Source: a virus
Length of the DNA stretch: 64,000 nucleotides
IMG/VR virus record: IMGVR_UViG_3300031992_000093
Span: 676 to 64,675 of that record
Reading direction: 5' to 3' (one strand)
In this document: in pieces, positions 1 to 39,600 of the stretch
Layout: the number at the start of each line of letters is the position of its first letter
Numbering within the stretch: position 1 is the first letter of the stretch
The notes under the pieces: generated by a model
Database searches by the model: none
Seen by the model: the letters and a program-made list of their open reading frames with translations, nothing else
What the model was told of the DNA's origin: nothing
Position numbers and translations under genes: made by a program

Positions 1-22
1 CACGGATAATTTCACTATCTTG

Positions 23-30
23 CAAAGTTA
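23..30 (-). promoter_or_regulatory. Bacteroidota -7 promoter box (TAACTTTG) pointing off the left edge, possibly the head-operon promoter
   Basis: Matches TAnnTTTG. If the genome is circular it lies upstream of the scaffold gene that is truncated at 64000. Confidence 0.45.
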
Positions 31-77
31 AACTTTCTTAAAATTTCGGGGTGATTTGAAGAAAAACACCGAAAAAC

Positions 78-108
78 TTGCATATATTGAATATATTGTC
101 TAAATTTG
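78..108 (+). promoter_or_regulatory. Promoter of the + strand early cassette
   Basis: TTG at 78-80 and TAAATTTG at 101-108, upstream of the ATG at 156. Confidence 0.6.
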
Positions 109-119
109 CAACATCAAAC

Positions 120-134
120 GTGCCTAACAAGCAC
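120..134. promoter_or_regulatory. 15-bp imperfect palindrome GTGCCTAACAAGCAC, putative operator
   Basis: A near-identical copy (GTGCCTAATAAGCAC on the - strand) lies at 13492-13506 beside another promoter. Confidence 0.45.
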
Positions 135-155
135 CTAACAAAACGCAATACAGAT

Positions 156-311
156 ATGGAATTTAAGGTTTTATTTATCACTGGAAAGACCAAGAGCTTC
201 AAAACGGAGCGCGGTATGAGAAACTTCATCGCCAGGAAGTCAAACGACATGAACAACGGCATCGTTATGTACGGTCTGGCAAAGTACATCAATTTATTCA
301 TCACTAAATGA
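156..311 (+). CDS. Small hypothetical protein (51 aa)
   Basis: ATG at 156 follows the promoter and is part of the conserved ACGCAATACAGATATG motif. Confidence 0.6.
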   Translation: MEFKVLFITGKTKSFKTERGMRNFIARKSNDMNNGIVMYGLAKYINLFITK

Positions 312-321
312 TTATCAGACA

Positions 322-570
322 ATGGAAAAAGCAAAACTTGGAACGGTTATCTACCTCGACGGCATCCGCTGTCACCTTGGAATGGTAGGTGGTTACACGA
401 AAGACGAGTGGGGCGACGACGCCTATTTACTTTCATCGGCTGTCATCGATGGCGACCTTGCACTCAACAATGAGGGAGAGGACGAGGACTTCATCTACCC
501 GATGGACTGCTGCAGTGAAGCGACCCAGGAGGACGCACAGAAGTATCTAAACAAGTTAATGAACAAGTAA
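322..570 (+). CDS. Hypothetical acidic protein
   Basis: Tightly packed ORF with phage-like codon usage. Confidence 0.7.
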   Translation: MEKAKLGTVIYLDGIRCHLGMVGGYTKDEWGDDAYLLSSAVIDGDLALNNEGEDEDFIYPMDCCSEATQEDAQKYLNKLMNK

Positions 571-582
571 AATCAGACAGCC

Positions 583-1047
583 ATGTTAATCAAGGAATTT
601 ATCGAAAGGACGGGTTTCACACCCACAGATGACTACTATCACACAGAGATAGAGCCGGAGTACAATCACAGCAAGCTCGAAAAGGACGATTGGTGCCGCG
701 AGTGGAAGAAGAACGGAGGCATCCAGAAAGCCTACGATGCCATGTGTAAGGATGCAGCCAACAACCATCTGAGAGTGAAGGAGCTTGAAAGTGTAATTGA
801 CGAGAACACTCAGAAGCTCGCTGAATACTACAAGCGGATTCAGGAACTGGAGCCGAAAGCCACCATCTATGACGGCATGGCAGATTTCCTAATCGAGCAA
901 GCCGAAAAGTGGTCTGCAACAGACCTCAGAGCAAAGGCCATTGAAATGCTCGGTTCCAGAGAGTACCTGCGTCGGAAGATTGAGAAAGGCTTCAACCTCT
1001 GGGAGTCAGACAAGGAATTACTCATTAACGTTTTATCGAATTACTAA
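583..1047 (+). CDS. Hypothetical coiled-coil protein
   Basis: 154-aa ORF in the + strand operon. Confidence 0.75.
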   Translation: MLIKEFIERTGFTPTDDYYHTEIEPEYNHSKLEKDDWCREWKKNGGIQKAYDAMCKDAANNHLRVKELESVIDENTQKLAEYYKRIQELEPKATIYDGMADFLIEQAEKWSATDLRAKAIEMLGSREYLRRKIEKGFNLWESDKELLINVLSNY

Positions 1048-1056
1048 ATAGGTAAC

Positions 1057-1082
1057 GGGGAGCCTAACCAACTCCCCATTTT
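1057..1082 (+). terminator. Putative intrinsic terminator/attenuator hairpin
   Basis: GGGGAG...CTCCCC stem followed by ATTTT in an intergenic gap. Confidence 0.45.
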
Positions 1083-1096
1083 AATGCAATACTGAT

Positions 1097-1487
1097 ATGG
1101 AAGATTTGAACAAGTACATCAAGAAGTCTCACATCAAAATGGTGGAGAACTTCAACGCGGATCTGGAAGCGTTCCGCAAAGAGACAGGAGAGCCAGTAGC
1201 GACGTTGTATGAGGATGCAAACACCTCATTCACACTTTCCTCTGTTCGCGTCGAGGAAGGCCGCTTAAAGTACACTTACGACGGCAAGGAGGAATACGAG
1301 GAAGCCTTGTGGGTGGATGAAGAGGACGGTTCACTTTCCGAAAGGGAGGGTCGACAGCATCCCGGAATACATCAAGTTCTGGCGTGCTTGCCTACGCCGG
1401 GCAAAGAGGTACTGGAGCATGGATGGTGACAAGCTGGATGCCATTCAGAACGGAGAGGCTCTTGACATTGAGATTGACGAAGATTAG
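1097..1487 (+). pseudogene. Hypothetical gene with an apparent +1 frameshift near 1349
   Basis: After ...SEREG the frame starting at 1350 reads VDSIPEYIKFWRACLRRAKRYWSMDGDKLDAIQNGEALDIEIDED* and ends at 1487, just before the next gene. The shift lies in the G-rich GAAAGGGAGGGTC. Confidence 0.55.
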
Positions 1488-1513
1488 TATTAACCATTAA
1501 ACGCAATATTGAT

Positions 1514-1912
1514 ATGGGACAATTTAGTTGGTTCACACAAGACACTCACCATCGTATCATTAACGATGAAGAGTACACGGTCATCATGTCGGATGACAAG
1601 GGAAACAAGTACGAGGAACACTGCTACGAGGGCTACGGTGTTTTCGGTGGTAAAGACTACTACGAGCTGCTGGCAGAAATGAACGGCTACAGCCTCGATG
1701 ACTTCAACGGTGACAAGGAGGCACTAAGACAGAAGGGTATCGACCTCGCCTTTGACGGTCATCCACATGGGGATAACCCGAACGTCAAGCACCCGTCGCT
1801 CACTGAGGCTGGTGTGTACTGGAACGGTAAAGCTCCAGAGTCAGACCCAGACCAGGGATGGCTGGAAGAGGACGAATGGGACGATTACGAATTTACTGAT
1901 GACAACTATTAA
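1514..1912 (+). CDS. Hypothetical phage protein (MGQFSW... YEGYGVFGGKDYYELLA)
   Basis: 132-aa ORF whose start is embedded in the ACGCAATATTGATATG motif. Confidence 0.8.
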   Translation: MGQFSWFTQDTHHRIINDEEYTVIMSDDKGNKYEEHCYEGYGVFGGKDYYELLAEMNGYSLDDFNGDKEALRQKGIDLAFDGHPHGDNPNVKHPSLTEAGVYWNGKAPESDPDQGWLEEDEWDDYEFTDDNY

Positions 1913-1916
1913 GACT

Positions 1917-2792
1917 ATGGAACAGATTACAAGAAGGGCCTCAGTAGAGGCATTGAAGAAACAGGCTTACGAGGCTAACCGCTGGAGCAGTTTCAACCCG
2001 GAGAGAGCAGGCGAGGTTCTGCTGAATTGTTGTGAACAGGAGCTGTCCGAGTTCCTGAGTAAGATACCCGAGGAATTTCACGAGGAATACGAGAAGCGTT
2101 TCCTTGAATTGTTCCGTCATTGGCTGGCCGCTCAGTCCAGATGTGCCAGCCCAGCGGTGACAGGCCCGGCCAAGTTCCCCACGGCGAAGAACCGCAAGTA
2201 TCTGGAGTGGGAACGCTCAGCCCGTGAAAAGCTCAATACATGGGTGGAGCGTGTTGTGAAGCGACTCAACCGCCAGCACCGTTTGACAGGATGGGAAGAG
2301 ATCGAGCGACTGCAAGAGAAGATTGACCGTCTGACTGAGCTGCAGGAGCTGATGAAGAAAGCCAATGCGGTGATCCGCAAGAAATCACTTGCCGACGTCG
2401 AGAAGGTTGAGGAACTGGAGAACCTTGGCCTGACTGAGAAACAGGCATTGGAGCTGATGGACGGCACAGGCTGTTGGTGGGGCAAGGGCTTTGCACCCTT
2501 CCAGCTCACTAACAACAATGCCAAGATTAAGAGCACACAGGAACGCCTCGACCGCCTCACGAAGATGGTCAACACCGAGGACAGGACTGAGGACTACGAA
2601 TGGGGAAGCCTCGAATACTGCTACAGCGAAGAACGGCTCCGCATCCACTTCAAAGAAATCCCCGACGAAAAACTCCGCTCGGAACTGAAAGGCTCTGCTT
2701 TCAAGTGGTCACGCAATAACCAGGCATGGCAGCGTCAGTTGACAAGCAATGCCATCTATTCCGCCAAACGTATTCTCAACATAGAGGGCTGA
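1917..2792 (+). CDS. DUF3560-like / polyvalent-protein-associated early protein
   Basis: The motifs SPAVTGPAKFP and LRIHFKEIPDEKLRSELKGSAFKWSRNNQAWQRQLT resemble proteins of mobile-element leading regions. Start moved to the ATG at 1917. Confidence 0.7.
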   Translation: MEQITRRASVEALKKQAYEANRWSSFNPERAGEVLLNCCEQELSEFLSKIPEEFHEEYEKRFLELFRHWLAAQSRCASPAVTGPAKFPTAKNRKYLEWERSAREKLNTWVERVVKRLNRQHRLTGWEEIERLQEKIDRLTELQELMKKANAVIRKKSLADVEKVEELENLGLTEKQALELMDGTGCWWGKGFAPFQLTNNNAKIKSTQERLDRLTKMVNTEDRTEDYEWGSLEYCYSEERLRIHFKEIPDEKLRSELKGSAFKWSRNNQAWQRQLTSNAIYSAKRILNIEG

Positions 2793-2795
2793 GTC

Positions 2796-3032
2796 ATGAA
2801 TAAGCGAAAGGTGTTCCATGTAGAATTGAAGCAGCCCCTCGACGGGAGGCAGCATTTCTACTTCGGCTCAAAAATGGCGATATTTGACGTTTTACCGCAT
2901 GAGGCAGTGGGAATCACTTACCGCACTCTTACGAACTGCGTAAAGCTCTCAAATGGGCCGTATGAGAATAAAAAATGCGTCATCAGACAAGGCGAACTGA
3001 TAACAACGAACCAAATTAGAGCAAAAAAGTAG
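2796..3032 (+). CDS. Small basic hypothetical protein
   Basis: 78-aa ORF, last gene of the cassette. Confidence 0.7.
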   Translation: MNKRKVFHVELKQPLDGRQHFYFGSKMAIFDVLPHEAVGITYRTLTNCVKLSNGPYENKKCVIRQGELITTNQIRAKK

Positions 3033-3040
3033 CCGAAAAT

Positions 3041-3071
3041 TTTGTCAGCTCGGAAAATTTGCTTAAATTTG
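3041..3071 (+). promoter_or_regulatory. Consensus Bacteroidota promoter with no credible downstream gene
   Basis: TTTG (3041-3044), 19-nt spacer, TAAATTTG (3064-3071). Confidence 0.65.
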
Positions 3072-3072
3072 C

Positions 3073-3156
3073 AGCCAAATAAAGGGTGTTCCTTAAATAC
3101 CGCGCCGGATTGCATCTCTGGAGGGAAGGGTTTAAGGGACGCTTTTTATTTTGGCT
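3073..3156 (+). ncRNA. Putative small RNA: long stem capped by a tRNA-Cys-like anticodon arm
   Basis: 3073-3097 pairs with 3131-3156 (about 25 bp, four G-U pairs that work only on the + strand). Inner stem CCGGA/TCTGG closes the 7-nt loop TTGCATC. Confidence 0.55.
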
Positions 3157-4627
3157 TTGCATTCTCGCTGTCGGATATGCTGTGCAGCTTCATTTCACCC
3201 CATTTCATTTCGTGAACGATTATCCAGCCCTTCTTTCCGTTTACCTCAGTCTCGAAGATGTGGCTACCCACAACGTCCTGCCTGTTCTTGCTGTCGCTGG
3301 TGACTCCGAGGTAGGTTGTCTTGTCGAACTTGTCAGGCAGTTCAAGCAGGAGCTCGTTCTTTGCCGCAAATTCCTCAAAAGGCTGGTTTAGCCACTCCTT
3401 GACGGCGCTGTTCGGCACCGTGATAGGTGAACCGATGGAAGGATGCGAAAGCGTATTGTCCTTGAACAGCACCTTTGCCTCTTCCCTAATCTCATTACGA
3501 CGCTCTCTGACGGCATCATCAAGTGGCCTGCTGGCCGCTGCCGTATTCGTCAGGAATTTCGGATTGTCCTTCATCCAGTAGGGCAGCGTTCCGCGCTGTG
3601 CCGCCTCGTCGATGCGCTCCTGGTTATCCTTCACCCATTTCTTGAAGTCCTCATGCGGTTCCGTCACCTCATTGGAAGAGTGGAAATCACCCGGCTCTTC
3701 ATCGTTGAGCAAGCGTTTCTGCATGGCTATCATTTCATCCATTGAGCATAGGATCGGCACGGCATAGCACCTACACTGGGGATGCCAGCCCCTAAAGTCG
3801 AAGTCCTTGGGGAACTTCCCGGCCAGGGCCTCACATATCTTGCACGGGAATTTCCTCTTGGAACGCTTCACCTCTATGCCTACGACGAAATCAAGCTGGC
3901 TCCACCGCTCATTATCGGCAGCACGGTAGGCCATGTTGGTCTCAGTCCTGGCAAGGCGCATGGCATTCTTGTAGCTGCTTCGGTACTCACCACGTCCGGG
4001 GTGGTACGCTGCGGCCCTCTTCGACAGCTTCAAGTTCCCCTCTTCGTCACGTACCCGGCGGAAAAGTCGGTCGGGCTCCTGCAGGTACTGGCGCACATGA
4101 CGCGAGACGGTGGCCGCTGAGTCACCACGCCCAAGGCTGGCAGACAGGGCAAGCTCCATTTCCTCTTTGAACTGGCTGGTGTACTTCCACACCTTCTGGG
4201 AGAGGTTGAGACCGCCGTACTCACTCTTGCGCTTGAAGAAGGCATCCATTGCGTCATGATTCCTGCTGAACCATCTGGCATAGTGGTTGTCATCTTTCAG
4301 CCCTTTTCCGAAGATGGACTCAATCATTGCATCGTTGGAGAGGTTCGCAAACTCCCATTCGGCTATGACACCCCTACGGATTTCCTGATAAACGGCGCTG
4401 TAGAGGCCACGCAGGACGTTTGTAGCCTTCACGGATAGTTTCTTATGGTCGGCGAAATAAAACACCTCTTCGGGCTCCAAATCGACGTCTGCGGCCAAGT
4501 CAAGCAGGGCATTGACGGCAGCGGTGTAGTACTTGCTGACGTTGGAAGCATAGCCCTCAGTACGTGCAAACAGCCCGGGCAGATACTTCTCGATCTCTAT
4601 CTTCTTCTGTTGCTTCTTCTTTTTCAT
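3146..4627 (-). CDS. MuF (SPP1 gp7-like) minor head protein with C-terminal nuclease-like extension
   Basis: Motifs RLARTETNMAY and CKICEALAG..FRGWHPQCRC. About 120 extra C-terminal residues end in LHSISD. Located downstream of the portal gene. Confidence 0.85.
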   Translation of the reverse strand: MKKKKQQKKIEIEKYLPGLFARTEGYASNVSKYYTAAVNALLDLAADVDLEPEEVFYFADHKKLSVKATNVLRGLYSAVYQEIRRGVIAEWEFANLSNDAMIESIFGKGLKDDNHYARWFSRNHDAMDAFFKRKSEYGGLNLSQKVWKYTSQFKEEMELALSASLGRGDSAATVSRHVRQYLQEPDRLFRRVRDEEGNLKLSKRAAAYHPGRGEYRSSYKNAMRLARTETNMAYRAADNERWSQLDFVVGIEVKRSKRKFPCKICEALAGKFPKDFDFRGWHPQCRCYAVPILCSMDEMIAMQKRLLNDEEPGDFHSSNEVTEPHEDFKKWVKDNQERIDEAAQRGTLPYWMKDNPKFLTNTAAASRPLDDAVRERRNEIREEAKVLFKDNTLSHPSIGSPITVPNSAVKEWLNQPFEEFAAKNELLLELPDKFDKTTYLGVTSDSKNRQDVVGSHIFETEVNGKKGWIIVHEMKWGEMKLHSISDSENAKPK

Positions 4628-6290: not shown

Positions 6291-7751
6291 CTATATTGCT
6301 AACATGGAGCCGACGTACTCAGGCACCTCGAAGCTGTCATCTACGAAATAGTTGATGGCATAGCCCAGTATATCGACATATTCATCATGGGTCTTGGCCG
6401 GGAAGCCGCAAACCTCGTCTATAAATTCCTCATTCCAGTCACCTTCCACCAGATACACGCGGCCACACTCAACCTTCGGGGCCACAGCATAGAGGCGCGT
6501 GTCTTTCGGATCTGTAGGCGACGGCGTGTAGGTGACATTGAGCGAACTCGACTCCTGTAGCTGCTGGCACACGCTCACACCGTTGGCTTTCGGCTCGATG
6601 CGCAGCGTGCTCTCTCCGCTGGCATCGTTAGCGGCCATGAAGTCCGGCAGATAGCGTATGAGGTCTGGAAACTCCTTGTAAACCTTCTGTGCGCAGGTGA
6701 TGTAGATATTGTTTCGTATCTTGCAGGCTCCGATGATGCCGCTGGGGTCATTGTCGCTCTTCTGCTTCTTGTTGTAGGCGGTATCGAGGAAGAAGTGAAT
6801 CGGCTCATGGAAGTGCAGGGCGTGATAGTCTGCCAGGCTGATGTGCCTGAACCATTTCTCCTTGATGATGTTACCGCCCTCTGCCGTCGGACGCTGTTCG
6901 TACTGCCCGGCATAGCCACGACTACCGAGGTCTGTCTTTGCTTCATTCAGTACGGGCCTCGGTAGTCTTACAGGATCGAGCAGGCCGTCCACATATTTCT
7001 CCCTCAGTTCCACAGGGCTTACGTTGTCCGACAGCTCAGCAGGGAGGCAGATATGACGGATATTCTCACCCTTCTTCTTCAACAGGTAGCCAGTCACATC
7101 TTCCTCATGGAGTCGCTGCATGATGGTGACCACAGGCGTATTGGCTTTGTCAACCTTACGTGAGGAAAGCGTCTTGGTATGCTCATTGGCAGCAGTACGC
7201 ATCTGCTCAGATTCGGCCTGTTTGGGGTTTACAGGGTCGTCATTGATGATAACGTGAGCATGGAAGCCGGTAATGGTGGCTCCCGTCGAAGTGGCGTAGC
7301 GGTAGCCAGTATCGGTATTCTCATAGTTCTGCTTGCCGCTCTTGTCTCGCCTTATCTTTATCTCGGGGAACAGCTTGCGGAACTTGTCACTTTCTATGAT
7401 GTCTTTCGACTTGGTGGCATGGTCGATGGATAGTGCGCCGGAGTATGAGTTGGTGATGATGCGGATGCTGGGGTCTTGCGTCCACAGCCAGACGGGCCAC
7501 ATCACCGTAACGATGGTACTCTTGGTGGTGCCTGGTGGAATGTTGATGATCAGGTCATACGGCTTTGGCCTTCGCTCCACGATAGACACGGAAAGCTTCT
7601 GGAGCTCACCACAAAGATACGGAATGTGCCAGTTGTACACAGGTTCCTCTTTGATGATGACGTCCCAGAAGGTCTTGACGAAGAAGAAGAAGCTCTTCCT
7701 GCACTCGTCAGCTACCACGGCGATTGCCAACTCCGAATAGTCGATGTTCAT
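6291..7751 (-). CDS. terL: Terminase large subunit
   Basis: Walker A-like INIPPGTTKS, Walker B IINDD, motif IMQRLHEED, nuclease motifs DTAY and FPAKTHDEYVD. Confidence 0.95.
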   Translation of the reverse strand: MNIDYSELAIAVVADECRKSFFFFVKTFWDVIIKEEPVYNWHIPYLCGELQKLSVSIVERRPKPYDLIINIPPGTTKSTIVTVMWPVWLWTQDPSIRIITNSYSGALSIDHATKSKDIIESDKFRKLFPEIKIRRDKSGKQNYENTDTGYRYATSTGATITGFHAHVIINDDPVNPKQAESEQMRTAANEHTKTLSSRKVDKANTPVVTIMQRLHEEDVTGYLLKKKGENIRHICLPAELSDNVSPVELREKYVDGLLDPVRLPRPVLNEAKTDLGSRGYAGQYEQRPTAEGGNIIKEKWFRHISLADYHALHFHEPIHFFLDTAYNKKQKSDNDPSGIIGACKIRNNIYITCAQKVYKEFPDLIRYLPDFMAANDASGESTLRIEPKANGVSVCQQLQESSSLNVTYTPSPTDPKDTRLYAVAPKVECGRVYLVEGDWNEEFIDEVCGFPAKTHDEYVDILGYAINYFVDDSFEVPEYVGSMLAI

Positions 7752-21315: not shown

Positions 21316-21843
21316 CTACATCATGTCAAATAGTGATAACTGCAAGGACTTCTGGCGCTCTTCCGCTTCTCTCTGCTTCCTGATGCGTTCCTCCTTGGCC
21401 TTGCGCTCCTTTTCCTCACGCTTGCGCTCTTCCTCCTTTAGCTTCGCAAGCTGCTCCTTCTCATAGTCAGCCTTGGCTTTCTCCTTCGCCTCGGCCTTCT
21501 CTTCCTCAGAGAGTTCGACGGTGTGGTTAACGACCACCTTCGCACTCACTGGCTTTACGTCCTTGATGTCATCCTCGTCATAGTAGTGAATGGCCATGTT
21601 GTAGATTTCGTCGTCATCGAATCCGCAACAGCCGGACTTCTTCACTTCCTGGAGAATGTAGTTACAGCACTCGTCAAGGTTCTTATTCTCCTTGGCGTAG
21701 GTCTGAGCAAACAGCGTGTCCTCTGCAGCTCTCTTGTCAAGATACGCCTTGATGGTGTTCTTGAACGAGGTGGAAACCTTCTCACCTCTTGGAGCGGACT
21801 TCTTCTGTTCCTGCTCCTTCTTGGTCTCATTCTTTGTTGCCAT
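21316..21843 (-). CDS. PcfK-like protein (family that includes AcrIIA9)
   Basis: FKNTIKAYLDKRA..D.LFA..Y.KENKNLDECCNYI..GFDDDEIYNMAIHYYDED. Ends QLSLF. Upstream of the PcfJ-like gene. Confidence 0.85.
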   Translation of the reverse strand: MATKNETKKEQEQKKSAPRGEKVSTSFKNTIKAYLDKRAAEDTLFAQTYAKENKNLDECCNYILQEVKKSGCCGFDDDEIYNMAIHYYDEDDIKDVKPVSAKVVVNHTVELSEEEKAEAKEKAKADYEKEQLAKLKEEERKREEKERKAKEERIRKQREAEERQKSLQLSLFDMM

Positions 21844-21860
21844 ATCAATATTGCGTTGAA

Positions 21861-28739: not shown

Positions 28740-29033
28740 TTATTTATGTGTGAAACAATAAGTGTTCGCTTTCGATTCCGTGACGGCCTTTGTCTCTACC
28801 TTGTTTGTACGGAGCCAGTTTTCAATCTCCGTCTTGTCGAAGAAAATCTTGCCGCCAAGAGGTTTGTAGAATGGGATCGTCTTGTTGGAAGTCATGCGGT
28901 ACAGATTGCCAACGGTGAAGCCAGTCATAAGGCTGACGTCCTCGATGGTGAGTATGTCCTTTGCTCCCATCAACACCAGACGCTCAATCTTGTCGAGCCG
29001 TTCATTGATTTGTAAGTATTCCTCGCTTGCCAT
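28740..29033 (-). CDS. Excisionase-like HTH protein
   Basis: LTIEDVSLMTGFTVGNLYRMTS..IPFYKP.G..IFFDKTEIENWL. Confidence 0.85.
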   Translation of the reverse strand: MASEEYLQINERLDKIERLVLMGAKDILTIEDVSLMTGFTVGNLYRMTSNKTIPFYKPLGGKIFFDKTEIENWLRTNKVETKAVTESKANTYCFTHK

Positions 29034-29298
29034 GTTCCTGCTTTTTGTTTACGGTGTTCAGCCTCCAGACGAACAGCCCGGCAATGCCTATGCATATCGC
29101 CGCCAACAGAATCGAGCTGTCAGCAGCGAGGATGCCAGTAAGCATGAATACCATGATGATATTCACCAGCACTACCTCGCGTCTTGTCACGGGGCCGTCT
29201 TCACCCATTACTTGTGTTCCTGTTTCGCTCTTCGCATCGAGCCATGCCTTGACAGCCGATACCCGCTGAGCGTAGCGGTTAGATAGATAATTCTTCAT
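29002..29298 (-). CDS. Small two-TM membrane protein
   Basis: Two hydrophobic stretches. Start embedded in the ACGCAATACTGGTATG motif. Confidence 0.7.
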   Translation of the reverse strand: MKNYLSNRYAQRVSAVKAWLDAKSETGTQVMGEDGPVTRREVVLVNIIMVFMLTGILAADSSILLAAICIGIAGLFVWRLNTVNKKQEHGKRGILTNQ

Positions 29299-29315
29299 AC
29301 CAGTATTGCGTTTTG

Positions 29316-29590: not shown

Positions 29591-29631
29591 TATCTTTGTC
29601 GCAACTTTCAAAGGTTGTCGGTGCAAAATTA
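29591..29631. promoter_or_regulatory. Lysis/lysogeny switch promoters in face-to-face arrangement
   Basis: TATCTTTG on + at 29591-29598 (toward the repressor) and TAATTTTG on - at 29624-29631 (toward cro). Confidence 0.55.
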
Positions 29632-29711: not shown

Positions 29712-30143
29712 ATGAGTACAATTAAAGAGCGAATAACCGAATTTATCGAATCCAAGGGCATTTCCGTAAATGCTTTTGAGACATCGGTAGGACTGAGTAA
29801 GAGTTATATGGCCAAGGTCAAAGGGTCTCTTGGCTCTGATATTCTGGAGAAGATACTCACCACTTATCCAGAGATAAACTGCATGTGGCTTATCAAGGGA
29901 GAAGGTGAAATGTTCCGAACTGATTCACCACCAGACGATGAAGCTATTCACCATGAGGACGGTCATACTATAGTCGGTGGCCATGTATCAGGCAATGGCA
30001 ATAATATCTCTCACAACGACCACGACAATATCTCTGGTATGATTGACCTGCAAAAGGGCTACCAAGACTTGTTGAAGAAGAGTCAGGAGCAGATCGACAG
30101 GCTCATTGGCATCATAGAGAAAGGAGGCAAGGATGATAGTTAG
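29712..30143 (+). CDS. CI-like repressor (HTH, no S24 peptidase domain)
   Basis: IKERITEFIESKGISVNAFETSVGLSKSY...YPEINCMWLIKGEGEMF. Divergent from cro. Confidence 0.85.
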   Translation: MSTIKERITEFIESKGISVNAFETSVGLSKSYMAKVKGSLGSDILEKILTTYPEINCMWLIKGEGEMFRTDSPPDDEAIHHEDGHTIVGGHVSGNGNNISHNDHDNISGMIDLQKGYQDLLKKSQEQIDRLIGIIEKGGKDDS

Positions 30144-30306
30144 GATTCAGGATTTTGTTGACAAGTGGAAGATTGCTATTCCACAAGAACTATTCATCGA
30201 CATGATGAAGGCTCAGCTAAATGACAAAACATTCTTCCGACTGAATGAGGAAGATTTCGACATCATCAAAACCAATTATAATAAGATTTATGGAAAAGTA
30301 TTATGA
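30133..30306 (+). CDS. Small hypothetical protein (57 aa, not in the ORF track)
   Basis: MIVRIQDFVDKWKIAIPQELFIDMMKAQLNDKTFFRLNEEDFDIIKTNYNKIYGKVL* fills the gap and overlaps both neighbours. Confidence 0.55.
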   Translation: MIVRIQDFVDKWKIAIPQELFIDMMKAQLNDKTFFRLNEEDFDIIKTNYNKIYGKVL

Positions 30307-30463
30307 AATGGCCATTGCAGCCTTGATAGATTGCATAAAGAACGGCACCAGCGACAAAGCTCTGGAAGAAGCCCAGTTCAACCTACAGAACGCCCTCGGT
30401 ACATCGACAGATGGTAAGACAGCAGAACTATTGGAGTCAATCAAAGAACTGAGGGGCTTATGA
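30290..30463 (+). CDS. Small hypothetical protein
   Basis: Starts MEKYYEMAIAAL; near-abutting stop/start overlap with the next gene. Confidence 0.55.
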   Translation: MEKYYEMAIAALIDCIKNGTSDKALEEAQFNLQNALGTSTDGKTAELLESIKELRGL

Positions 30464-30741
30464 GTAAGAGACGTGCATACAAGCAAGAGACCATCGACTG
30501 CCAGCAGCGGTTCTTCGACGTGCTGCAGATACTTCTCGATGGCGACAAGGTGCCGGGTGGAATGACTGGCTTCTGTGAGACATACGACATAGACAAGCGC
30601 CACCTCTACGAACAGAGAAAGGACATGGGTAAGGGTTATTTCGAGGTTGCCTGGATCCTTCCCCTTATCAAGTATTTCAAGGTCAATCCTACATGGCTCC
30701 TTCTCGGAACTGGAGAGCAGTTCAGGAAGAGGACTATATAA
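30460..30741 (+). CDS. HTH-like protein of the lysogeny operon
   Basis: FCETYDIDKRHLY...YFKVNPTWLLLGTGEQF, a repressor-like tail motif. Confidence 0.75.
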   Translation: MSKRRAYKQETIDCQQRFFDVLQILLDGDKVPGGMTGFCETYDIDKRHLYEQRKDMGKGYFEVAWILPLIKYFKVNPTWLLLGTGEQFRKRTI

Positions 30742-30745
30742 CAAC

Positions 30746-30779
30746 AAAAGCGGGGCCAGTTTTCGTGACCTCGCTTTTT
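30746..30779 (+). terminator. Intrinsic terminator of the repressor operon
   Basis: AAAAGCGGGG...CCTCGCTTTTT. Confidence 0.6.
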
Positions 30780-31120
30780 CATCTTTCCCCATACCCCTAT
30801 TTTACTCTTTCTATTTTTTCTTTCTCTTATTCATTATTATAATATATATATAGGCAAAATTCCAGCAGGTGCCGCTACTTTTGCCGCGGCGTTTGTCGAT
30901 AGTTTTGCCGCGACAAATCACACGAAAAATAAGCAGTTCGGGCGTTTTGGTTAACGGATTTAACAATTAACACCCAAAATGATGAAAAACGTGTTGCGGC
31001 AAACTTCCAGCAAAAGGGTCGGCAAATGGTGCGGCAAATACTGCGGCAAATGATGCGGCAAATTTCGATTTTTGCCGATAGTTTTGCCGTTACTTTTGTC
31101 GCGGCAAATGACGCGGCAAA
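30780..31120. repeat. Origin-like region: AT-rich tract plus about 15 iterons
   Basis: CGGCAAA/TTTGCCG-type heptamers, mostly at 12-bp spacing (30880, 30892, 30904, 30911, 30997, 31008, 31020, 31032, 31044, 31056, 31071, 31083, 31095, 31102, 31114). AT-rich tract at about 30799-30852. Confidence 0.75.
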
Positions 31121-31122
31121 TT

Positions 31123-32274
31123 TTATTTGTCCTTTTTCAGCCCTATATCTGGTATGTTCATCACCGCCGCCTGCTTGGTCTTGTCGAGCACCTTTGCGTA
31201 TATCTGAGTCGTGGAAAGCTCACGGTGGCCCAGAAGCTTCGAGACGGTGTAGATATCGGTACCAATATCCAGCATCATGACGGCGAAGGTATGCCGGGCA
31301 CAATGGAAGGTTATCTCCTTGGTGATGCCAGCCCGGAGCATCCACACCTTTATTGCATGGTTGGTGGCCGATGCCGTGAGGAAATCGTTAAACACCAAGT
31401 CCGTTGGGTTCCTGCGCTCACCCAGCAGCTCAGCGGCTTGCGGCGTGATGTCGATGTACTCCTGTCCGCTGGTTTTCTTCTGCTTGAAGATGATTCGCGT
31501 GTACTCTCCCTGCTTGTGTACCTCGCTCCATGTCATCTTCATGATGTCTGATCTGCGAAGACCTGTAAGGCATGAGAAGAGGAAGGCACGCTTTACACCA
31601 GGTGCAGGACAATCGGCAGCGGTGATGGCCTTTATCTCGTCAATGGTAAGGTACATTCGCTTGCTTTCCTCGGCCTTGAAGTTGTCAACGCCTCGTAATG
31701 GATTGTCAGAGATAACACCGTCCGCAAGTGCCTGATGTATGCACGCACGGAGCTTGTTGAAGTAGGACAGCTTGGAGTTCCTGGATAGCTTGTGGTACTC
31801 CAGTTCGCGCTCATACCTTGGCGACCACGCCTTGGCATCGTTCTCCAGATAGTCCTTGAAGCCCTGCACCCACTCAGGCGTTATGTCGTCGAAGGTGATA
31901 TCCTCGTTCTTCTCATATATTTTCAGATGCTTATAGCAGGAGTACCAGTTTCCCCAGTTGCCCCTCGACTCCGGCGCACCCTTGCGCTTCTCGCACATGG
32001 CAGAGTAGTAGTCGAAGAATCTGATGTTGTGCTCTGGCTGATGGAAGCCGAACTTTCCGTTCTGATAGTCCACTATGCGCTTGGCCTTGATGGCTTCCGC
32101 AAGCTGCATAGTCTTCTTGTTGGTTTCCTTGTCTGCCCGGCTCTTTTCTGGAATGAGGTAGAGCTTCAAGTATTCATACTCCCTCTTGCCGTTGTGGTAG
32201 AGGTCAAGGTAAATGGAGCTTCTGCCGTCCTTCAGCAGACGCGTCCTTAGTCTGATAGGTTCTGATGATGTCAT
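31123..32274 (-). CDS. int: Tyrosine integrase (Bacteroidota arm-binding type)
   Basis: N-terminal SIYLDLYHNGKREYEYLKLY. Catalytic motifs TGLRRSD, FHCARHTF and LGHRELSTTQIYAK. Confidence 0.95.
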   Translation of the reverse strand: MTSSEPIRLRTRLLKDGRSSIYLDLYHNGKREYEYLKLYLIPEKSRADKETNKKTMQLAEAIKAKRIVDYQNGKFGFHQPEHNIRFFDYYSAMCEKRKGAPESRGNWGNWYSCYKHLKIYEKNEDITFDDITPEWVQGFKDYLENDAKAWSPRYERELEYHKLSRNSKLSYFNKLRACIHQALADGVISDNPLRGVDNFKAEESKRMYLTIDEIKAITAADCPAPGVKRAFLFSCLTGLRRSDIMKMTWSEVHKQGEYTRIIFKQKKTSGQEYIDITPQAAELLGERRNPTDLVFNDFLTASATNHAIKVWMLRAGITKEITFHCARHTFAVMMLDIGTDIYTVSKLLGHRELSTTQIYAKVLDKTKQAAVMNIPDIGLKKDK

Positions 32275-32276
32275 AC

Positions 32277-32573
32277 TTTTGTTGTTTTGTTGCTTGAATG
32301 ATAACGAGCAACAAAGTAACAACAAAAAAACGACAAACGGACTAAAACGGACTCAAAACACCCTATTTATAACTATATTTAAGAAAAATGCCTGTTTTCG
32401 GGGCTTTTCTGAGTTCTTTTGCGGTTTTTCTGATACCGTTTGTTATTGTCCTACTTTCCGACGCAGAAACGCTACTTTCCCACGCAGAAATTAGACAAGT
32501 CGCTGTAAGTGTGCTGATTACAAGCATCTTAGGCGATTCTTGTTTCTCGTCGAGCAACAATCCAGCAACAAAA
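32277..32573. other. attP: tandem 18-bp cores matching the 3' end of mnmE/trmE, flanked by arm-type repeats
   Basis: The - strand reads AAT TTC TGC GTG GGA AAG TAG CGT TTC TGC GTC GGA AAG TAG (FCVGK* twice; cores 32472-32489 and 32451-32468). CGAGCAACAA occurs at 32305 and 32551, with related AGCAACAAAA copies nearby. Confidence 0.8.
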
Positions 32574-32602
32574 ATGCAGAAAAATCACTTTCGGAGGGAT
32601 GC

Positions 32603-32639
32603 CAAAAGCCCCCATGCCTGACGAAGGACACGGGGGCTT
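32603..32639 (-). terminator. Intrinsic terminator (for the sRNA and the lysis operon)
   Basis: AAGCCCCCGTG...CATGGGGGCTTTT on the - strand. Confidence 0.75.
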
Positions 32640-32675
32640 ACGCAATACTGATATGTCCTAAAACATTATCAGACG
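32603..32675 (-). ncRNA. Putative trans-acting antisense sRNA (~70 nt)
   Basis: Bounded by a consensus promoter (32680-32711) and a terminator (32603-32639). Contains CATATCAGTATTGCGT, complementary to five start-codon regions. Confidence 0.7.
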
Positions 32676-32679
32676 GGTG

Positions 32680-32711
32680 CAAAGGTAGTCATTTTTTTCG
32701 GAACGGCCAAA
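32680..32711 (-). promoter_or_regulatory. Consensus Bacteroidota promoter driving the sRNA
   Basis: TTTG (32708-32711), 20-nt spacer, TACCTTTG (32680-32687). Confidence 0.7.
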
Positions 32712-33261
32712 TTTTGGAGAGGGAAAAATTATATTGGACTCCCAAACCGAGGTATGGCTGCATCCCTGCCGGGGTTATTCCGTACCCAGCCTGCACTCCG
32801 AAAGTGAACGCCGGGGGAGGCTCCCTTCTTGTGACGGTTATCATCTTACTATACACGCTGATGCTGTCGAGCTTCGCATCAAAGCCGCTTACGTATGCGG
32901 TATAGGTGGAGTCCCGATAGACCTTCTGCGTGATGGGAAGTGAGATCGTCACGCTGTCGCTGTCCTCTGGAATAATTCCGACGGCAATGTAGCATGAGTC
33001 TGGAATAGAATCAGGCTGATTGTTGCCGATTATCGGCTGTTTCCGTCGGTTTCCACGGACTTTGACAGCGGAAGCAGGGATTTTATAGTCCTTGACTGCT
33101 ACCTGTGCGCTGTCGGACGCAGAATCAGGTACAAACGTGCTGACAATGGTTGTGGTGTCGATAGACACCTCTCCCGGCTCTGGCTTGCACACCTGGTTCA
33201 GCAGTACCAGGTTCAGCAATATAGATACCAGCAGCAGGATTGGAACGATACTCTTTTTCAT
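32689..33261 (-). CDS. Membrane-anchored lysis accessory protein (spanin-like position)
   Basis: N-terminal TM, LPITQKVYRDSTYTAYVSG, and a C-terminal beta-hairpin GVQAGYG..PYLGLGVQYNF. Follows the endolysin. Confidence 0.75.
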   Translation of the reverse strand: MKKSIVPILLLVSILLNLVLLNQVCKPEPGEVSIDTTTIVSTFVPDSASDSAQVAVKDYKIPASAVKVRGNRRKQPIIGNNQPDSIPDSCYIAVGIIPEDSDSVTISLPITQKVYRDSTYTAYVSGFDAKLDSISVYSKMITVTRREPPPAFTFGVQAGYGITPAGMQPYLGLGVQYNFSLSKIWPFRKK

Positions 33262-34933: not shown

Positions 34934-36244
34934 TTATGTGAATTGATACCGAACCTTCCCCTGACCGAAGTACTGAGGCTTGATAGTGGTCTCAAAAGGA
35001 ATGTTGCCAGCCTTCTTGAACTCTTCAAGCCAGAACTTCTGTTCCGAGTCGTTTGTAAGATACTTGCACAGAACGCCGTCCTGCTTCTTGTACTGGACTA
35101 CATAGCGAGGCCCGTTCTGGGTCTGCACGTCCGGCTCGAAGTCGAGGACGGTAATCTGCATGTTCACCAGTGAGCGCAGATTCTCCGGGGTACCCGGAAG
35201 GATCCGCTTTCCATCCTTGCCAGTGTAGTCAACACCAGCGCCTTGTCTCTTTTTCTTCAATTCTGCAAATGATTCCATATTCTTTCCTGTTAATGTTTTA
35301 TACAAATTCTTGCAGTCACCCCATTTGGCCATGCCTTTGAGGCTTCCGATGATTTCCTGCCTACGCTTGCGGCTCTTGACCTTTGACAGCTTGCGGGCCG
35401 CTTTCTGCTTAGTTCTTTTCCTAAGTCGTGCCTTTTCGCCGTCGTACACGAAGCCGAGGAAGTCTATTCCCTCCTTGATGGGCTTCACGCTCTCATTGGG
35501 CTTTATCTGGAGGCCTAACTCTGCAACCTTCTCATGCATAATGTCGCGGAGCATCCAGAGCTTACTCTTGGAGTCTGCCAGTATGACGATGTCGTCACAA
35601 TAGCGGTAGTAGTACTTGACTCCCAGCACATCCTTGAAGTAGTGGTCGATACTGCTCAGTATGATGTTACCGTAACACTGGCTCGACCTCAGACCGATGG
35701 AGAGGCCCTTCGGCATCATGGTGATGAAGCTATGCAGGATCGGTAGAAGAACGGGGTCTTTTATGTAGTGCTTCACGCACCGCCACATCACTTCCTGGTC
35801 TATCGACTCAAAGAACTTCCTGATGTCGCACTTGTAAAAGAACCTCGTGCCTTCCGGGTCGCTCTCGATGTCGTGGCGCATCTTCTCGAAAAGATGGTGC
35901 ATTCCACGACCGGGGATGCTTGCTGCAGATGTCTTGATGACGCCCGGATATAGCACATCTTCAACGATACGCATGATGGCGTTGCATCCTACCCTGTCAG
36001 TCACGCACGGGCTTTGCACCAGTCTTATCTTAGGCCCGTCCGTTACAAGCATTTCCTGATAGCCCCTCACCCTGAAAGTGCCGTCGGATATCTCCTTTGT
36101 CAGCCAGGCGATAATCGTTTCACGCTTGTTACGATAATATGTACGCCTTGGCTCCTTTAGCTGGTCAACCACTTCGTCAAATGCCCGATCCATATTGGAA
36201 CGCTCAACGATCCTGGCGACCAGATGACCATATCTTTTAGCCAT
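34934..36244 (-). CDS. DGR reverse transcriptase with ~114-aa C-terminal extension
   Basis: KCDIRKFFESID, DGR-type IGLRSSQ, YRYCDD and GIDFLGF. Immediately downstream of the TR. Confidence 0.95.
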   Translation of the reverse strand: MAKRYGHLVARIVERSNMDRAFDEVVDQLKEPRRTYYRNKRETIIAWLTKEISDGTFRVRGYQEMLVTDGPKIRLVQSPCVTDRVGCNAIMRIVEDVLYPGVIKTSAASIPGRGMHHLFEKMRHDIESDPEGTRFFYKCDIRKFFESIDQEVMWRCVKHYIKDPVLLPILHSFITMMPKGLSIGLRSSQCYGNIILSSIDHYFKDVLGVKYYYRYCDDIVILADSKSKLWMLRDIMHEKVAELGLQIKPNESVKPIKEGIDFLGFVYDGEKARLRKRTKQKAARKLSKVKSRKRRQEIIGSLKGMAKWGDCKNLYKTLTGKNMESFAELKKKRQGAGVDYTGKDGKRILPGTPENLRSLVNMQITVLDFEPDVQTQNGPRYVVQYKKQDGVLCKYLTNDSEQKFWLEEFKKAGNIPFETTIKPQYFGQGKVRYQFT

Positions 36245-36465
36245 TACAATTCTTCTTCGTTCGTGTGGCCATAGCATGTTCGAGCAGATGCCTACTTATC
36301 CATAATCGGCCACACCCTGTGATGTTCCAGTTTTCCATCCTGTAAAGGATGCTGTTACTGAGGCTCAAATCCCTCGCCGTCAGCATTCACCCATCCCGTG
36401 AGTGTGCGCCGTAGCGACGATTGTTTCTCCAGATGATTGCTCACCGTGAAGCAGAGTTTCGATTT

Positions 36466-36580
36466 AGCAGAGCCGACCACCGTTGTTCGTGTTCGAGTTC
36501 GTGGAGGCGTTATTCGTGTTCGAATAAGCGACACCCGCGTTCGCGTTCGCATTGTTGTTCGAGCGACCGAGCACCCGGCC
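36466..36580 (-). ncRNA. DGR template repeat (TR)
   Basis: AAC-rich non-coding repeat. It differs from VR1 at 11 positions and from VR2 at 10, all TR adenines. Confidence 0.95.
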
Positions 36581-36652: not shown

Positions 36653-39600
36653 CTACGCTGCCGATTCAAGCTCGCTCTCGTTCTCGATCTCACCGAAGAA
36701 GCAGAGCCGACCACCGTTGTACGTGCTCGAGTTCGCGGAGGCGTAATACGTGCTCGAATAAGCGACACCCGCGTACGCGACCGCACTGTAGTTCGAGCGA
36801 CCGAGCACCCGGCCTTTATCACTATTAGATGACTGATAAGCGGCATAGCACATAGCGTATGAGGTCTCTCCCGTATAGGCTGATACCACTATCTCACACC
36901 TTCTGCCGAAGCGGACACGGGCTGCACAGGTAGTATTGTTCAGAGAAGCAGCCTTTACCCTGCGCTCGTTGCCGTCCTGCTGTAAGATGTTGTAGAAGTA
37001 GTCAGTCACATAGGAGGCACTTGCAGGACGCCTCTCTCTGAGGAACTGAGCAAACGAAGGAGCATTAAAGCAGCCCTTGTCAGTCCACTCATAGGTAGAT
37101 GCCGTCCAGCACTCCAGACCCCACATCTTGTTATGCTGGTTCTGTGCCGGGTATGCTGAATCACCCATACCGATATTGTTACGAATACCAGTCGTTTCAC
37201 CAGAGGAAGAACCTCGTCCGACTATGGTTTCAATATCTCTTGTACCGAACCATGCCATCAGCAAGTTTGCCATGTCCTTCGATGTCTCGAAAGGCACGGT
37301 GGTATATTCACCGTTGAGGACGCCAGACTGATACGTGCGGTATCTCGCAAGATTGAAGAAGTCCTGGGCCGTGCCATTGATGCGACTTGTCGGCAAAGCG
37401 GTTGGATTGCCTATGCTGTCGTAAGACCATGCAACCTGTGTCGATGTACCACTGCCGCGAGACACTACCTTGCCACTGATGGAGCGTAGACCACTTGTCG
37501 GAGTTCCGCCAGTAGTGATGCCCTCTGCCCAGCCTTGATAGATGCCGATTAGCTCAGACTTATGTTCTACCCAGTCTGGCTCAATGGCCTCAATCTCCAT
37601 GCTGTCAGTCAAGATAACCTCCGGCTCAGTAGCTGCCGACTCCTTGGTGCAGGCGAAATAGAGATACTTCGCGTTGTCCGGGATGGTCAGGAAGATGTAG
37701 TCGCCGATGTTGTTGTCGAAGTCAGCAGGGTTGACAATGGAACCGTTCACGACAATATCCTGCATTTCAAAGTTGAACACCTGCAGCACCTTATTATTGA
37801 TGCCGACGAAAAGGACACAGGCCATGCCGTCGCTCCTATCATGGTAGCCAGGGAACCTTACCTGCTTCATACCACCGCTAACGTCCACCCTGTATGTGTC
37901 AAGGGCATTGGTTCCGTAAAGCAGAGCCTCGTTCATGGTGTCACCGACGCTGTGCCTGGTATTCAATGGAACAGAATCAGCTATCTTCGTAAGTGATGAC
38001 AGCTGTAATCTCGTTGTGACGGTAGCCGTGCTGTCTGGGGACGTAGTGCGGTTGGAGAGGAACAGGTGCTTTCTCGCATTCTTATAGTCATTGACACCCT
38101 TGTAGTGATACTTAGGGACATATAGGAATACATCACGCAGGAGGATGGAAGAGGCTCCCGTGATGTCGGCAGCAGTTCCGTCAGCCTTTAGCGTATAGTT
38201 CGTCTTGGAAAGAGGCTCAACGTGCATCTTGTGTGTGTCAGGATTGACGTATGCAGTAACAGGAACACAGCGGTCGTGAATCAGCTCTACGTGGCCCGAG
38301 TGGAAATATCCGTTGGGGTGTTCTATGCTGGTATCTGCACCTGCCCTGTAGTCATATCCTGTCTGGTTGTCCTCGTTGGTGATATTCGCCGGATCTGTTT
38401 CTTCGTCACTGAACACATATTCCGAGTACTGACATTCAAGCACCGTAAGGCCGCAGCGCTCGAAGAACGTCTGCATGGTGGAGAAGTCATCCACCACGTC
38501 AAGGAGCTGCACGGTGCCGATCAAAGCGGGATAGGTCTGTTCAGCACCAGTGGCCGTCAGACCCATGTAGCCGGACATGAAGGGTCTCAGAACAGAGGAA
38601 CGGACACGTCCGCTCATGCCCTCAATGCGCACATGGTCTATGTTATGGCACTGCTGGAGCAGTATTCTCCAGTCGAGGTTAGGACACTCGGCGAAGTTGA
38701 GCGCACGGACTGACGCGGCATTCTGCAAAGTTAGCCCGGAATGAGTCAGCTGTGGCAGATAGCGAAGCGTCAGGGTTGTCAGCGTGGCCGGAAGAACAAC
38801 GGTTGTAGCAGGGGCACCCTCCGCAATCTTCACGGTAGTAAGAGAGGTTCCTCCAGCAAGCAGCGTTGTTAGCCTGGTATGCTTCGATACGTCAAAGATT
38901 CCTGCAGTTCCTGTGTGTACCGATGTCTGGCCTGTGATGTCGATATACTGGAGTTTTGACGTCTCTCCGAGAATCAGCGGTGCATTAGACACGCCGACGG
39001 TGGCTGGCATCACCAGCTTGGAAAGCATCGTACAGAGAGAGAGGTTTACGGTACCATTCAACTGACTGCCCATGTTGGTAAAGTCAAGCTCCTTGATGCA
39101 GCTTGCACCTCCGAGCATCAGCGGGTCATTGGTGGCAAGACGCTGTGTGAAGCTGAGCGTCAGTTGTTCGTCGATGTCTGCTCTCGACGGGCCTTGCAGC
39201 CAAATACCGTTTAGCTTGTAACCGAAGTAGTAGAGATCACCGCTCGTCAGCGTCAAGGATGACGGAGTATCGCCTGCCTCACGTACCACCGTGAAAGTCA
39301 TAACGTCGCCGTTGTAGTCACCAGCACCGTAACGGGCATCGAGCAGCCTTGCACGGTCGTTGATGAACTGCCTGATATGTTCCTCACGGCTACCAGTCAG
39401 CGTATAGACGTAGTTCATGGTGTCGATGGTATCAATGTATTTCAGCTTGCCACTCTTGTTGTACTGACGTGCAGACCAGTTGCCAATCATGGTGCCGATG
39501 AACTCGTCGAGCATCTTCTGGTTGGTGAGCTTGTTGCGCAGGGCAATGGCACAGCGTTTCAGATCGCTTTCGAGGTTGGCCAGTACCAGGCACCACAACC

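Follow-up and report, generated by a model that had tools for sequence, protein, structure and literature searches.

Antisense RNAs of phages are mostly devices for one target, as in the case of CI, OOP and sar. The c4 RNA of the phages P1 and P7 acts on sites in its own operon and controls one downstream function, its seeds differ between heteroimmune phages, and the CI RNA of phage P4 presumably is a relative of it. In phage T4 it is a protein, RegA, that switches off the translation of many early mRNAs, by recognition of a short sequence that they share and that overlaps the AUG. The present analysis concerns a window of 64,000 nt (bases 676-64675 of the IMG/VR virus record IMGVR_UViG_3300031992_000093, which has 64,675 bp and is rated complete) from a temperate Prevotella phage, in which a 16-nt sequence, here called the tag, ends in the ATG of five genes and has its perfect complement in a minus-strand unit beside the phage attachment site attP. 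This unit, at 32603-32711, is probably the gene of a trans-acting antisense small RNA (sRNA) that would block translation initiation at the tagged phage cistrons, as judged from the sequence and from modelled pairing.

That the C4 antisense RNA regulates Ant is stated in PMC8201110, where Citron & Schuster 1990 is cited. In Bacteroides thetaiotaomicron, the sRNA GibS pairs across start codons with an extended single-stranded seed, has its own promoter and terminator, and acts without a known chaperone, and the phylum has no obvious homologue of Hfq or ProQ (PMC7366714). In Cluster K mycobacteriophages, many non-structural genes have an asymmetric 13-bp motif, the start-associated sequence (SAS), a few bases before their start codons (Pope et al. 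2011, PMC3203893). Across subclusters the SAS is maintained in front of differing gene families, the host genome is almost free of it, and the main text and legends of that paper also report unexplained single copies on the opposite strand; where the authors discuss the partner of the SAS, they leave open whether it is a phage- or host-encoded RNA or protein (PMC3203893). Still in a 2025 study the function of the SAS is treated as unknown, and small RNAs are not mentioned in the parts of the text that deal with it (PMC12699233). A 2026 preprint on antisense oligomers that silence mRNAs of Prevotellaceae suggests that antisense action at start regions works in this family (10.64898/2026.04.17.719208), and a literature search gave no published description of such phage RNAs in Bacteroidota.

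The tag, with the consensus ACGCAATACTGATATG, has six copies with at most one mismatch in the window, all at the positions given in an earlier note that had been made from the sequence alone, and the whole record of 64,675 bp contains no additional copy at this threshold. With up to three mismatches, 0.43 matches are expected and seven were found, the seventh being a 3-mismatch match at 37320, and none of 100 shuffles reached seven. Five copies differ from the consensus by one base each and end in the ATG of open reading frames (ORFs) of 51, 110, 132, 175 and 98 amino acids (aa; Table 1), which is in agreement with the earlier note, and also its designation of two of these targets as a PcfK-like protein and a membrane protein holds, as the former has a Pfam match and the 98-aa protein has a strongly hydrophobic stretch. 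The deviations comprise three C>U changes, one at position 2 and two at position 9, together with A>G at position 12 and U>A at position 10 (site 143). The sixth copy, at 32640-32655 on the plus strand, has no mismatch and had been claimed to start no gene: its frame reads ATG TCC TAA, and the plus-strand frames that follow the corresponding copies in different relatives have 2, 2, 6, 7, 15 and 42 codons and thus are not conserved.

The complement of this sixth copy had been placed inside a unit with promoter and terminator on the minus strand, and this assignment stands, with a full-consensus promoter, a strong terminator and conservation of the whole unit. The promoter fits the -33/-7 consensus of Bacteroidota, it is one of two full-consensus matches in the window where 0.24 are expected, and it is conserved in the relatives. 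The only other match to the full consensus TTTG-N19-21-TAnnTTTG is at 3041-3071 (+) and points at the 3' end of a minus-strand head-morphogenesis/MuF-like gene (3146-4627). An 85-nt stretch of the RNA locus folds with -34.7 kcal/mol (z = -4.0; -4.0 to -4.3 over two foldings). In this fold the seed half UAUUGCGU (32640-32647) is predicted to be single-stranded, and the half that complements the start-codon part of the tag, CAUAUCAG (32648-32655), forms the 3' arm of a 5' hairpin whose 5' arm practically repeats the start-codon half of the tag. Across the relatives, neither strand of the unit has a conserved ORF. In Rfam, the unit has no family match at the gathering threshold in a search over the window, and at E<=10 over 32400-32800 it is likewise unmatched, the best match there being Flavo-1 with 18.7 bits on the other strand. 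Two hallmarks of trans-encoded base-pairing sRNAs thus are found in silico, namely a promoter and an intrinsic terminator of its own that bound a short non-coding unit, and a conserved accessible seed, half of which lies in a stem, that is complementary to the initiation regions of several unlinked targets.

For the pairing, the cofolding energy difference (ddG) was calculated for the 74-nt RNA and the region -30 to +15 of the first ATG of every ORF of at least 45 aa on both strands, which gave 305 candidates. The five tags fill the ranks 1-6, with ddG values of -13.0 to -19.1 kcal/mol where the median is -2.2 and the 5th percentile -7.0, and rank 1 belongs to an overlapping candidate start with tag 4 in it. 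Plain duplex energies had been tried before this measure replaced them: if the whole RNA is used, its G+C-rich terminator outweighs everything else and makes the ranking meaningless, and with nucleotides 1-38, four of the five tags are in the top 16 of 31,986 windows, with site 143 outside the top 22 and many non-start windows scoring alike. The 5' arm of the RNA had been suggested to recognise a second kind of site, and the 10-mer ATTATCAGAC indeed has just two exact copies in the window, one within the RNA gene and one at 311-320, where its ddG of -9.7 has rank 7 of 305 (tied with one unrelated start) and where it is conserved in G001 and G013, the two relatives compared, amid varying flanks. 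A further, partial match at 572-578 before gene 3 had also been named as a target and is not supported, as it has rank 49 of 305 and is absent in G001, although it extends to 9 nt in G013.

Table 1. Features of the window, with the tag and RNA elements first and the surrounding genes below
Feature	Position	Strand	Remarks
Tag 1, ACGCAATACAGATATG	143-158	+	start of the 51-aa gene 156-311, first in the rightward early cassette; ddG -13.2, rank 5/305; U>A at position 10
Tag 2, ATGCAATACTGATATG	1084-1099	+	start of the 110-aa gene 1097-1429; ddG -13.0, rank 6/305
Tag 3, ACGCAATATTGATATG	1501-1516	+	start of the 132-aa gene 1514-1912; ddG -14.6, rank 4/305
Tag 4, ACGCAATATTGATATG	21841-21856	-	start of the PcfK-like gene 21316-21843 (Pfam 2.6e-42), downstream of replisome organiser and DnaC-like loader; ddG -16.0, rank 3/305
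Tag 5, ACGCAATACTGGTATG	29296-29311	-	opens the gene of the 98-aa membrane protein (29002-29298), second cistron in the leftward early operon; ddG -18.0, rank 2/305
Secondary site, ATTATCAGAC	311-320	+	a single base ahead of ATG 322, where the 82-aa gene 322-570 starts; complement of the 5' arm of the RNA
Promoter, TTTG-N20-TACCTTTG	32680-32711	-	Bacteroidota -33/-7 type; extends into the final codons of the 200-aa late gene upstream
Predicted small RNA, about 74 nt	32603-32676	-	5' end inferred from the promoter, 3' end from the U-tract
5' arm, GUCUGAUAAU	32665-32674	-	pairs with a seed half in the predicted fold of the free RNA; complementary to 311-320
Anti-tag (seed), CAUAUCAGUAUUGCGU	32640-32655	-	complement of the tag
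Intrinsic terminator	32604-32638	-	13-bp G+C-rich hairpin, then UUUU
attP core	32452-32492	-	two tandem copies of the mnmE 3' end (FCVGK-stop); junctions map to about 32469-32476
Integrase (int)	31123-32325	-	PHROG integrase 1.6e-53
Repressor-like gene	29712-30143	+	family scans
Early cassette, rightward	1-3100	+	tags on genes 1, 4 and 5
Long leftward operon	starts near 29,600	-	75-aa protein, tag 5 and 98-aa membrane protein, Xis/HTH-like, SbcC-like, RecT, replisome organiser, DnaC-like loader, tag 4 and PcfK, Ant, terminase, portal, head genes (HTH, helix-turn-helix)
Genes rightwards of the RNA gene		-	endolysin, reverse transcriptase of a diversity-generating retroelement (DGR) with RT-3 RNA, three genes with products longer than 2000 aa

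Shine-Dalgarno pairing is not what the host phylum relies on, and it was considered that the tag could be an enhancer that pairs with rRNA, but its longest run with 16S rRNA is 8 nt, which equals the median of shuffled tags (the 16S rRNA of a relative was used, as the host metagenome-assembled genome (MAG) has no 16S gene), so that this idea is not supported. The same result speaks against a related explanation that is quite unlikely, according to which pairing of the RNA with the tags leads to activation or stabilisation of the tagged cistrons, or the tag is a translational enhancer that is masked by the RNA at a particular stage. The stop codon of the last late gene, at 32689, is inside the promoter and the RNA gene begins directly after it, so that late transcripts would carry the RNA sequence as their 3' end, and this would fit a temporal switch rather than immunity. 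A duplex over -13 to +3, however, normally blocks initiation, which is general knowledge and also part of the discussion of GibS (PMC7366714).

Homologous RNA loci are present in rumen and gut Prevotella phages (G001, G002/G003/G013, G004, L275, L276 and L277). The scans comprised an exact-seed scan of viral contigs, which gave 50 stretches that were mostly chance matches with the homologous units among them, promoter-plus-seed scans with one match in genomes and eleven in metagenomes, of which nine are the RNA unit and two are chance matches, and a seed-free scan with the neighbouring 200-aa protein as anchor, which gave seven loci. The 16-nt seed is identical in every homologue recovered, and the phages that share seed and tags have only 66-80% nucleotide identity. 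In G004, L275, L276 and L277, the promoter region and the flank on the attachment (att) side are homologous and the 16 nt are identical, with different sequences in the 5' loop and in the terminator stem, and the changes in this stem are compensated in these four and in G001. Nine distinct sequences were aligned and six of them folded, the other three differing from the folded ones by few bases, and all six share the same architecture, i.e. a 5' hairpin with the 3' arm CAUAUCAG(U), a single-stranded (U)AUUGCGU, and the terminator, with z-scores of -3.5 to -6.4. In the anchor scan, which did not require the seed, the unit is present in five of the seven loci (L070 read through L017), and G004 keeps it though its neighbouring protein is only 35% identical. 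The two most distant anchor loci, G011 and G012 (41-45% identity over part of the protein), have no seed, and no repeated start motif was found in their genomes; G011 has another promoter-hairpin unit at the position of the RNA, the complement of which gives one self-match and two 3-mismatch matches in that genome. A search with the att-side flank as anchor returned only five contigs, all already known.

In the relatives, whole-record and local scans with a limit of two mismatches gave 23 distinct sense tags in nine records (for L272, L275, L276 and L278, only local loci are behind the readings), and all of these tags are directly before ORFs or, in G001 and G002, before a mini-ORF of seven codons that is followed by a gene. 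The tagged genes are often unrelated between the phages, every genome with both ends present has several sense tags and exactly one antisense copy, and one antisense copy is found in each record that includes the att-proximal end. The 21 mismatches in these tags are concentrated at position 9 (11) and position 10 (7), with two at position 12 and one at position 2, so that the positions 1-8, which face the exposed octamer of the RNA, are unchanged in 22 of the 23 sites, and the exception is a C>U that still permits a G-U pair. Some deviations are shared, as the A>G of tag 5, which is found also in G001 and L275, and the U>A of tag 1, found also in G001 and G013, are kept in homologous genes of other lineages. 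The 4.8-Mb host MAG outside the prophage has no tag with at most one mismatch and three 2-mismatch matches as compared to two for the reversed control, which indicates a regulon internal to the phage.

The mini-ORF, MNDYIFH, is opened by a perfect tag at G001:25741-25756 (+) and G002:268-283 (+), with the ATG of the larger gene 14 bases past its stop and in a module that has no counterpart in the window; it may encode a leader peptide or be a shifted target site. Among 59 PcfK loci (L076-L134), no 7-mer plus ATG recurs three or more times at the first ATGs. Most of the distant PcfK homologues of other gut phages (L088-L134) are preceded by AACGCAATTATG, in which the first seven letters of the tag are kept and the rest is not, and no further copies of this sequence occur in the 20-kb PcfK loci.

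The window and G001 are collinear up to the ATG of tag 2 and encode unrelated proteins after it, so that the tag is also a mosaic joint. A conserved hairpin, GGGGAGCCTAACCAACTCCCC, together with tag 2 forms this joint (window 1050-1100 as compared to G001:34636-34700). Such a joint, and the occurrence of the same tag before unrelated genes in different phages, would be expected if the 16-mer were mainly a recombination linker at module boundaries, in which case the copy at 32640 would be a stranded gene start beside attP, and promoter and terminator would act for int or the late operon; before integration, the promoter does point across attP towards int. A relic of this kind should degenerate, whereas every homologue has a perfect copy amid replaced flanks, the plus-strand frame after it is not maintained, the 5' arm is complementary to it in all six folded variants, and the exact register of -13 to +3 would be left unexplained by a linker, which makes the linker very unlikely as the main role of the tag.

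Arrays of dispersed operators, as the stoperator-like arrays in Cluster A mycobacteriophages, have a resemblance to the six dispersed copies per genome, and the 16-mer could by this analogy be an operator that is bound as double-stranded DNA by the phage repressor or by some other DNA-binding protein. Stoperators have been contrasted with the SAS (PMC3203893). The sense copies, however, have one orientation and one register to the ATG also at cistrons inside operons, the motif is not palindromic, and the early promoter carries a different repeat, so that a DNA operator is highly improbable. This early rightward promoter, at 77-108 (+), is TTG-N20-TAAATTTG with the tandem repeat CATATATTGAATATATTG between its elements; the repeat has no copy in the window outside this promoter and is likely the operator of the repressor.

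Several points argue against an antisense RNA acting on the tags. The earlier note had reasoned that the deviating bases still pair as G-U, and this is true in the window, where direct reading and the cofold structures show the pair retained in four of the five deviations and lost at the U>A of site 143. Among the relatives, C>U changes at positions 9 and 2 and the A>G change at position 12 retain G-U pairs, but pairing is lost with the changes U>A (4 sites) and U>G (2 sites) at position 10 and at a CU>AC site, and as 8 of the 23 sense tags are unpairable with the seed at positions 9-10 (U>A, U>G, CU>AC), the argument is weaker than it first appeared. The conservation is bipartite, ACGCAATA-NN-GATATG, as would be seen also with a protein site, and half of the seed is sequestered in a stem of the predicted free RNA. 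No relative with a changed seed was found in the variant searches, so that there is no covariation of seed and targets to rely on; in viral contigs, the pattern TTTGCA-N12-30-ATCNNTATTGCG had at least 108 matches, of which 105 were screened and five passed the filter, none of them resembling this RNA. The invariance of the seed is partly by construction, since the exact-seed scans demanded it, and the tag-bearing fragments G006-G010 lack the lysis/att end and thus are outside the comparison in which tags and RNA are coupled. Local enrichment of transcripts, described below, is seen in one of four RNA data sets only and comes from contigs without strand. The anatomy of the sequence, its conservation, and the predicted fold and pairing are shown directly, and it is from these that we infer transcription, the biological role, and repression as the direction of the effect.

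Some of these points would be accounted for if the tags were operators for an RNA-binding protein of the phage or the host, a repressor or activator in the manner of RegA, with the antisense RNA as a competitor or as something unrelated. A protein would explain the free dinucleotide between two conserved blocks and the seed-incompatible sites, it would explain the fixed register with the ATG, and the identity of seed and tags across otherwise diverged phages looks as if a common third partner constrained both. Such a protein leaves unexplained why a perfect complement of the tag lies in a conserved promoter-terminator unit with a preserved fold, no candidate protein was identified, and the RegA family (PF01818) had no match in the 64,675-bp record in a search that was run without a positive control, so that we regard the protein operator as unlikely and prefer an antisense RNA.

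The surroundings of the RNA gene, for which the layout was taken from PHROG and Pfam scans, are those of a prophage end. The provirus G001 is collinear with the window and has its ends, 119 and 58959, at window positions 32473 and 32474, and in the proviruses G001 and G003 the similarity to the window ends directly after the FCVGK-stop unit. The junctions in a Prevotella MAG from sheep abomasum correspond to window positions 32469 and 32476, and the host gene at its int-side junction (L302:10598-11968, -) encodes MnmE/TrmE (Pfam 1.8e-46, 5.3e-40). From the junctions and this gene it follows that attP is the duplicated 3' end of mnmE at about 32452-32492, and that the position beside attP that had been claimed for the RNA gene is right: it lies some 130 nt in from the prophage end that is opposite to int, and is directed outward, to the att core derived from mnmE. 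Before integration the RNA gene is upstream of int, with attP between them, and after integration int is at the other end of the prophage. About 1 kb past the RNA-side junction, the host MAG has a tyrosine-integrase-like gene (L301:141-1148, -; G013:C32, about 6640-7650) that is 30% identical to the phage int and may come from another element in tandem at the same site.

The 75-aa protein that is encoded by the first cistron of the leftward early operon had no match in family scans and is read by eye as HTH-like. Further away, an RT-3 RNA (Rfam RF03068, 94.9 bits) at 36266-36422 (-) lies directly upstream of a reverse transcriptase gene at 34934-36277 (-) (PHROG 1.9e-89), and the two together identify a DGR. 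An RNA run, X1, has a contig on 36466-36579 with loose ends exactly there and with no differences other than T>N as read on the plus strand, which is A>N on the minus one; if 36466-36580 is the template repeat, this is the pattern expected for a variable-repeat copy.

Expression data were available as Logan contigs, which have neither strand nor transcript ends, from four RNA runs of four studies, out of 23 listed runs. In X3, from bovine gut, position 32603 is spanned by a contig with a depth of 238, and the bin of the locus has a mean of 111, with 135-324 in the region from the repressor to int and 0-1.8 in adjacent late genes. Depth that is so uneven argues for RNA rather than contaminating DNA, the profile hints at a lysogen, and the contig itself hints at a transcript of the RNA locus. 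X3 contigs also have loose ends at 32465/32472, within the attP core. The most abundant part of the 9 kb compared in X3 is a depth-316 contig of an about 95% identical relative, which covers window positions 29806-31400, including the repressor gene's 3' end, a minus-strand frame of 163 codons, a repeat-rich intergenic region and the 3' end of int. In X1 the depth at the locus is 4.2 and similar to the neighbours, in X7 a contig stops at 32634, and in X5 there is no cover in the bin 32515-32815.

How the antisense RNA would act can be outlined from the predicted structures. The exposed octamer would dock on the invariant half of the tag, ACGCAAUA, at -13 to -6 of the five cistrons, and the duplex would extend by opening the 5' hairpin until it covers -13 to +3 including the start codon, which would keep the 30S subunit off the tagged cistrons within polycistronic early and replication mRNAs. 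As the 5' arm pairs with the seed in the free RNA, target binding would start at the octamer and displace this arm, and the freed arm could then reach AUUAUCAGAC before the second early gene, a model that corresponds to a toehold. Because the gene is near the prophage end and behind the last late gene, the RNA could be made from its own promoter in the lysogen, and as the 3' end of late transcripts the same sequence may contribute to a shut-off of the tagged early genes late in infection. The constitutive expression and the part in prophage repression or superinfection immunity that the earlier note had proposed are hypothetical at this stage.

One may tentatively go further and regard this as a portable layer of RNA control, in which any gene that is recombined behind a tag comes under one master RNA, in which a mimic of the tag within the RNA gates the seed and pairing proceeds by toehold strand displacement. 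Expression in the lysogen would then confer cross-immunity throughout the phage family, because the seed is common to phages of so low an identity, the late mRNA ends would serve early shut-off, and the same logic might explain the SAS of Cluster K; all this is possible and clearly less certain than the antisense function itself. If true, the abundant Prevotella phages of rumen and gut would have a small switch at the post-transcriptional level by which prophages are maintained, cross-immunity is conferred or early genes are shut off, there would be a concrete hypothesis for start-associated sequences in other phages, and tag and seed could serve as an orthogonal part for translational control in Bacteroidota, where genetic tools are scarce.

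In comparison with the known systems, the tag is like the SAS an asymmetric, start-codon-linked repeat that occurs in one orientation and is absent from the host. The SAS consensus GGGATAGGAGCCC, however, holds a Shine-Dalgarno core and is 3-7 bp from the start, whereas the tag is not Shine-Dalgarno-like, includes the ATG, and has an identifiable antisense RNA gene, and as the phages and hosts are unrelated (actinophages as compared to a Prevotella phage), this is an analogy and not a membership. RegA is a protein, and the evident partner of the tag is an RNA. GibS is chromosomal and metabolic, its length is about 145 nt, its 5' seed is for the most part unstructured and its complementarity is partial, whereas the RNA described here is phage-borne and about 74 nt long, has a half-sequestered seed with 15-16 of 16 nt complementary to a repeated tag, and has no homology to GibS as far as Rfam searches go. 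With c4, from the immI region of P1/P7 (c4-icd-ant; Rfam C4, RF01695), the proposed RNA has in common that it would be a small structured phage RNA for which pairing in trans with phage mRNA is predicted; c4 in this way restrains lytic or antirepressor functions and contributes to immunity, and the RNA proposed here might do the same. It differs from c4 in that RF01695 has no match at the gathering threshold over the window or at E<=10 over 32400-32800, in that a tag locked to the start codon is present at five to six dispersed cistrons, which belong to at least two operons, in that the seed is the same in all relatives found, and in the phylum of the host, which is without obvious Hfq/ProQ. 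By analogy, the RNA would thus work like c4 of P1/P7 and like the Bacteroides sRNAs that target translation initiation regions, such as GibS, and is a member of neither family: antisense RNAs of the c4 type mostly have one target, and here a single RNA is matched to the start-codon tag of dispersed cistrons.

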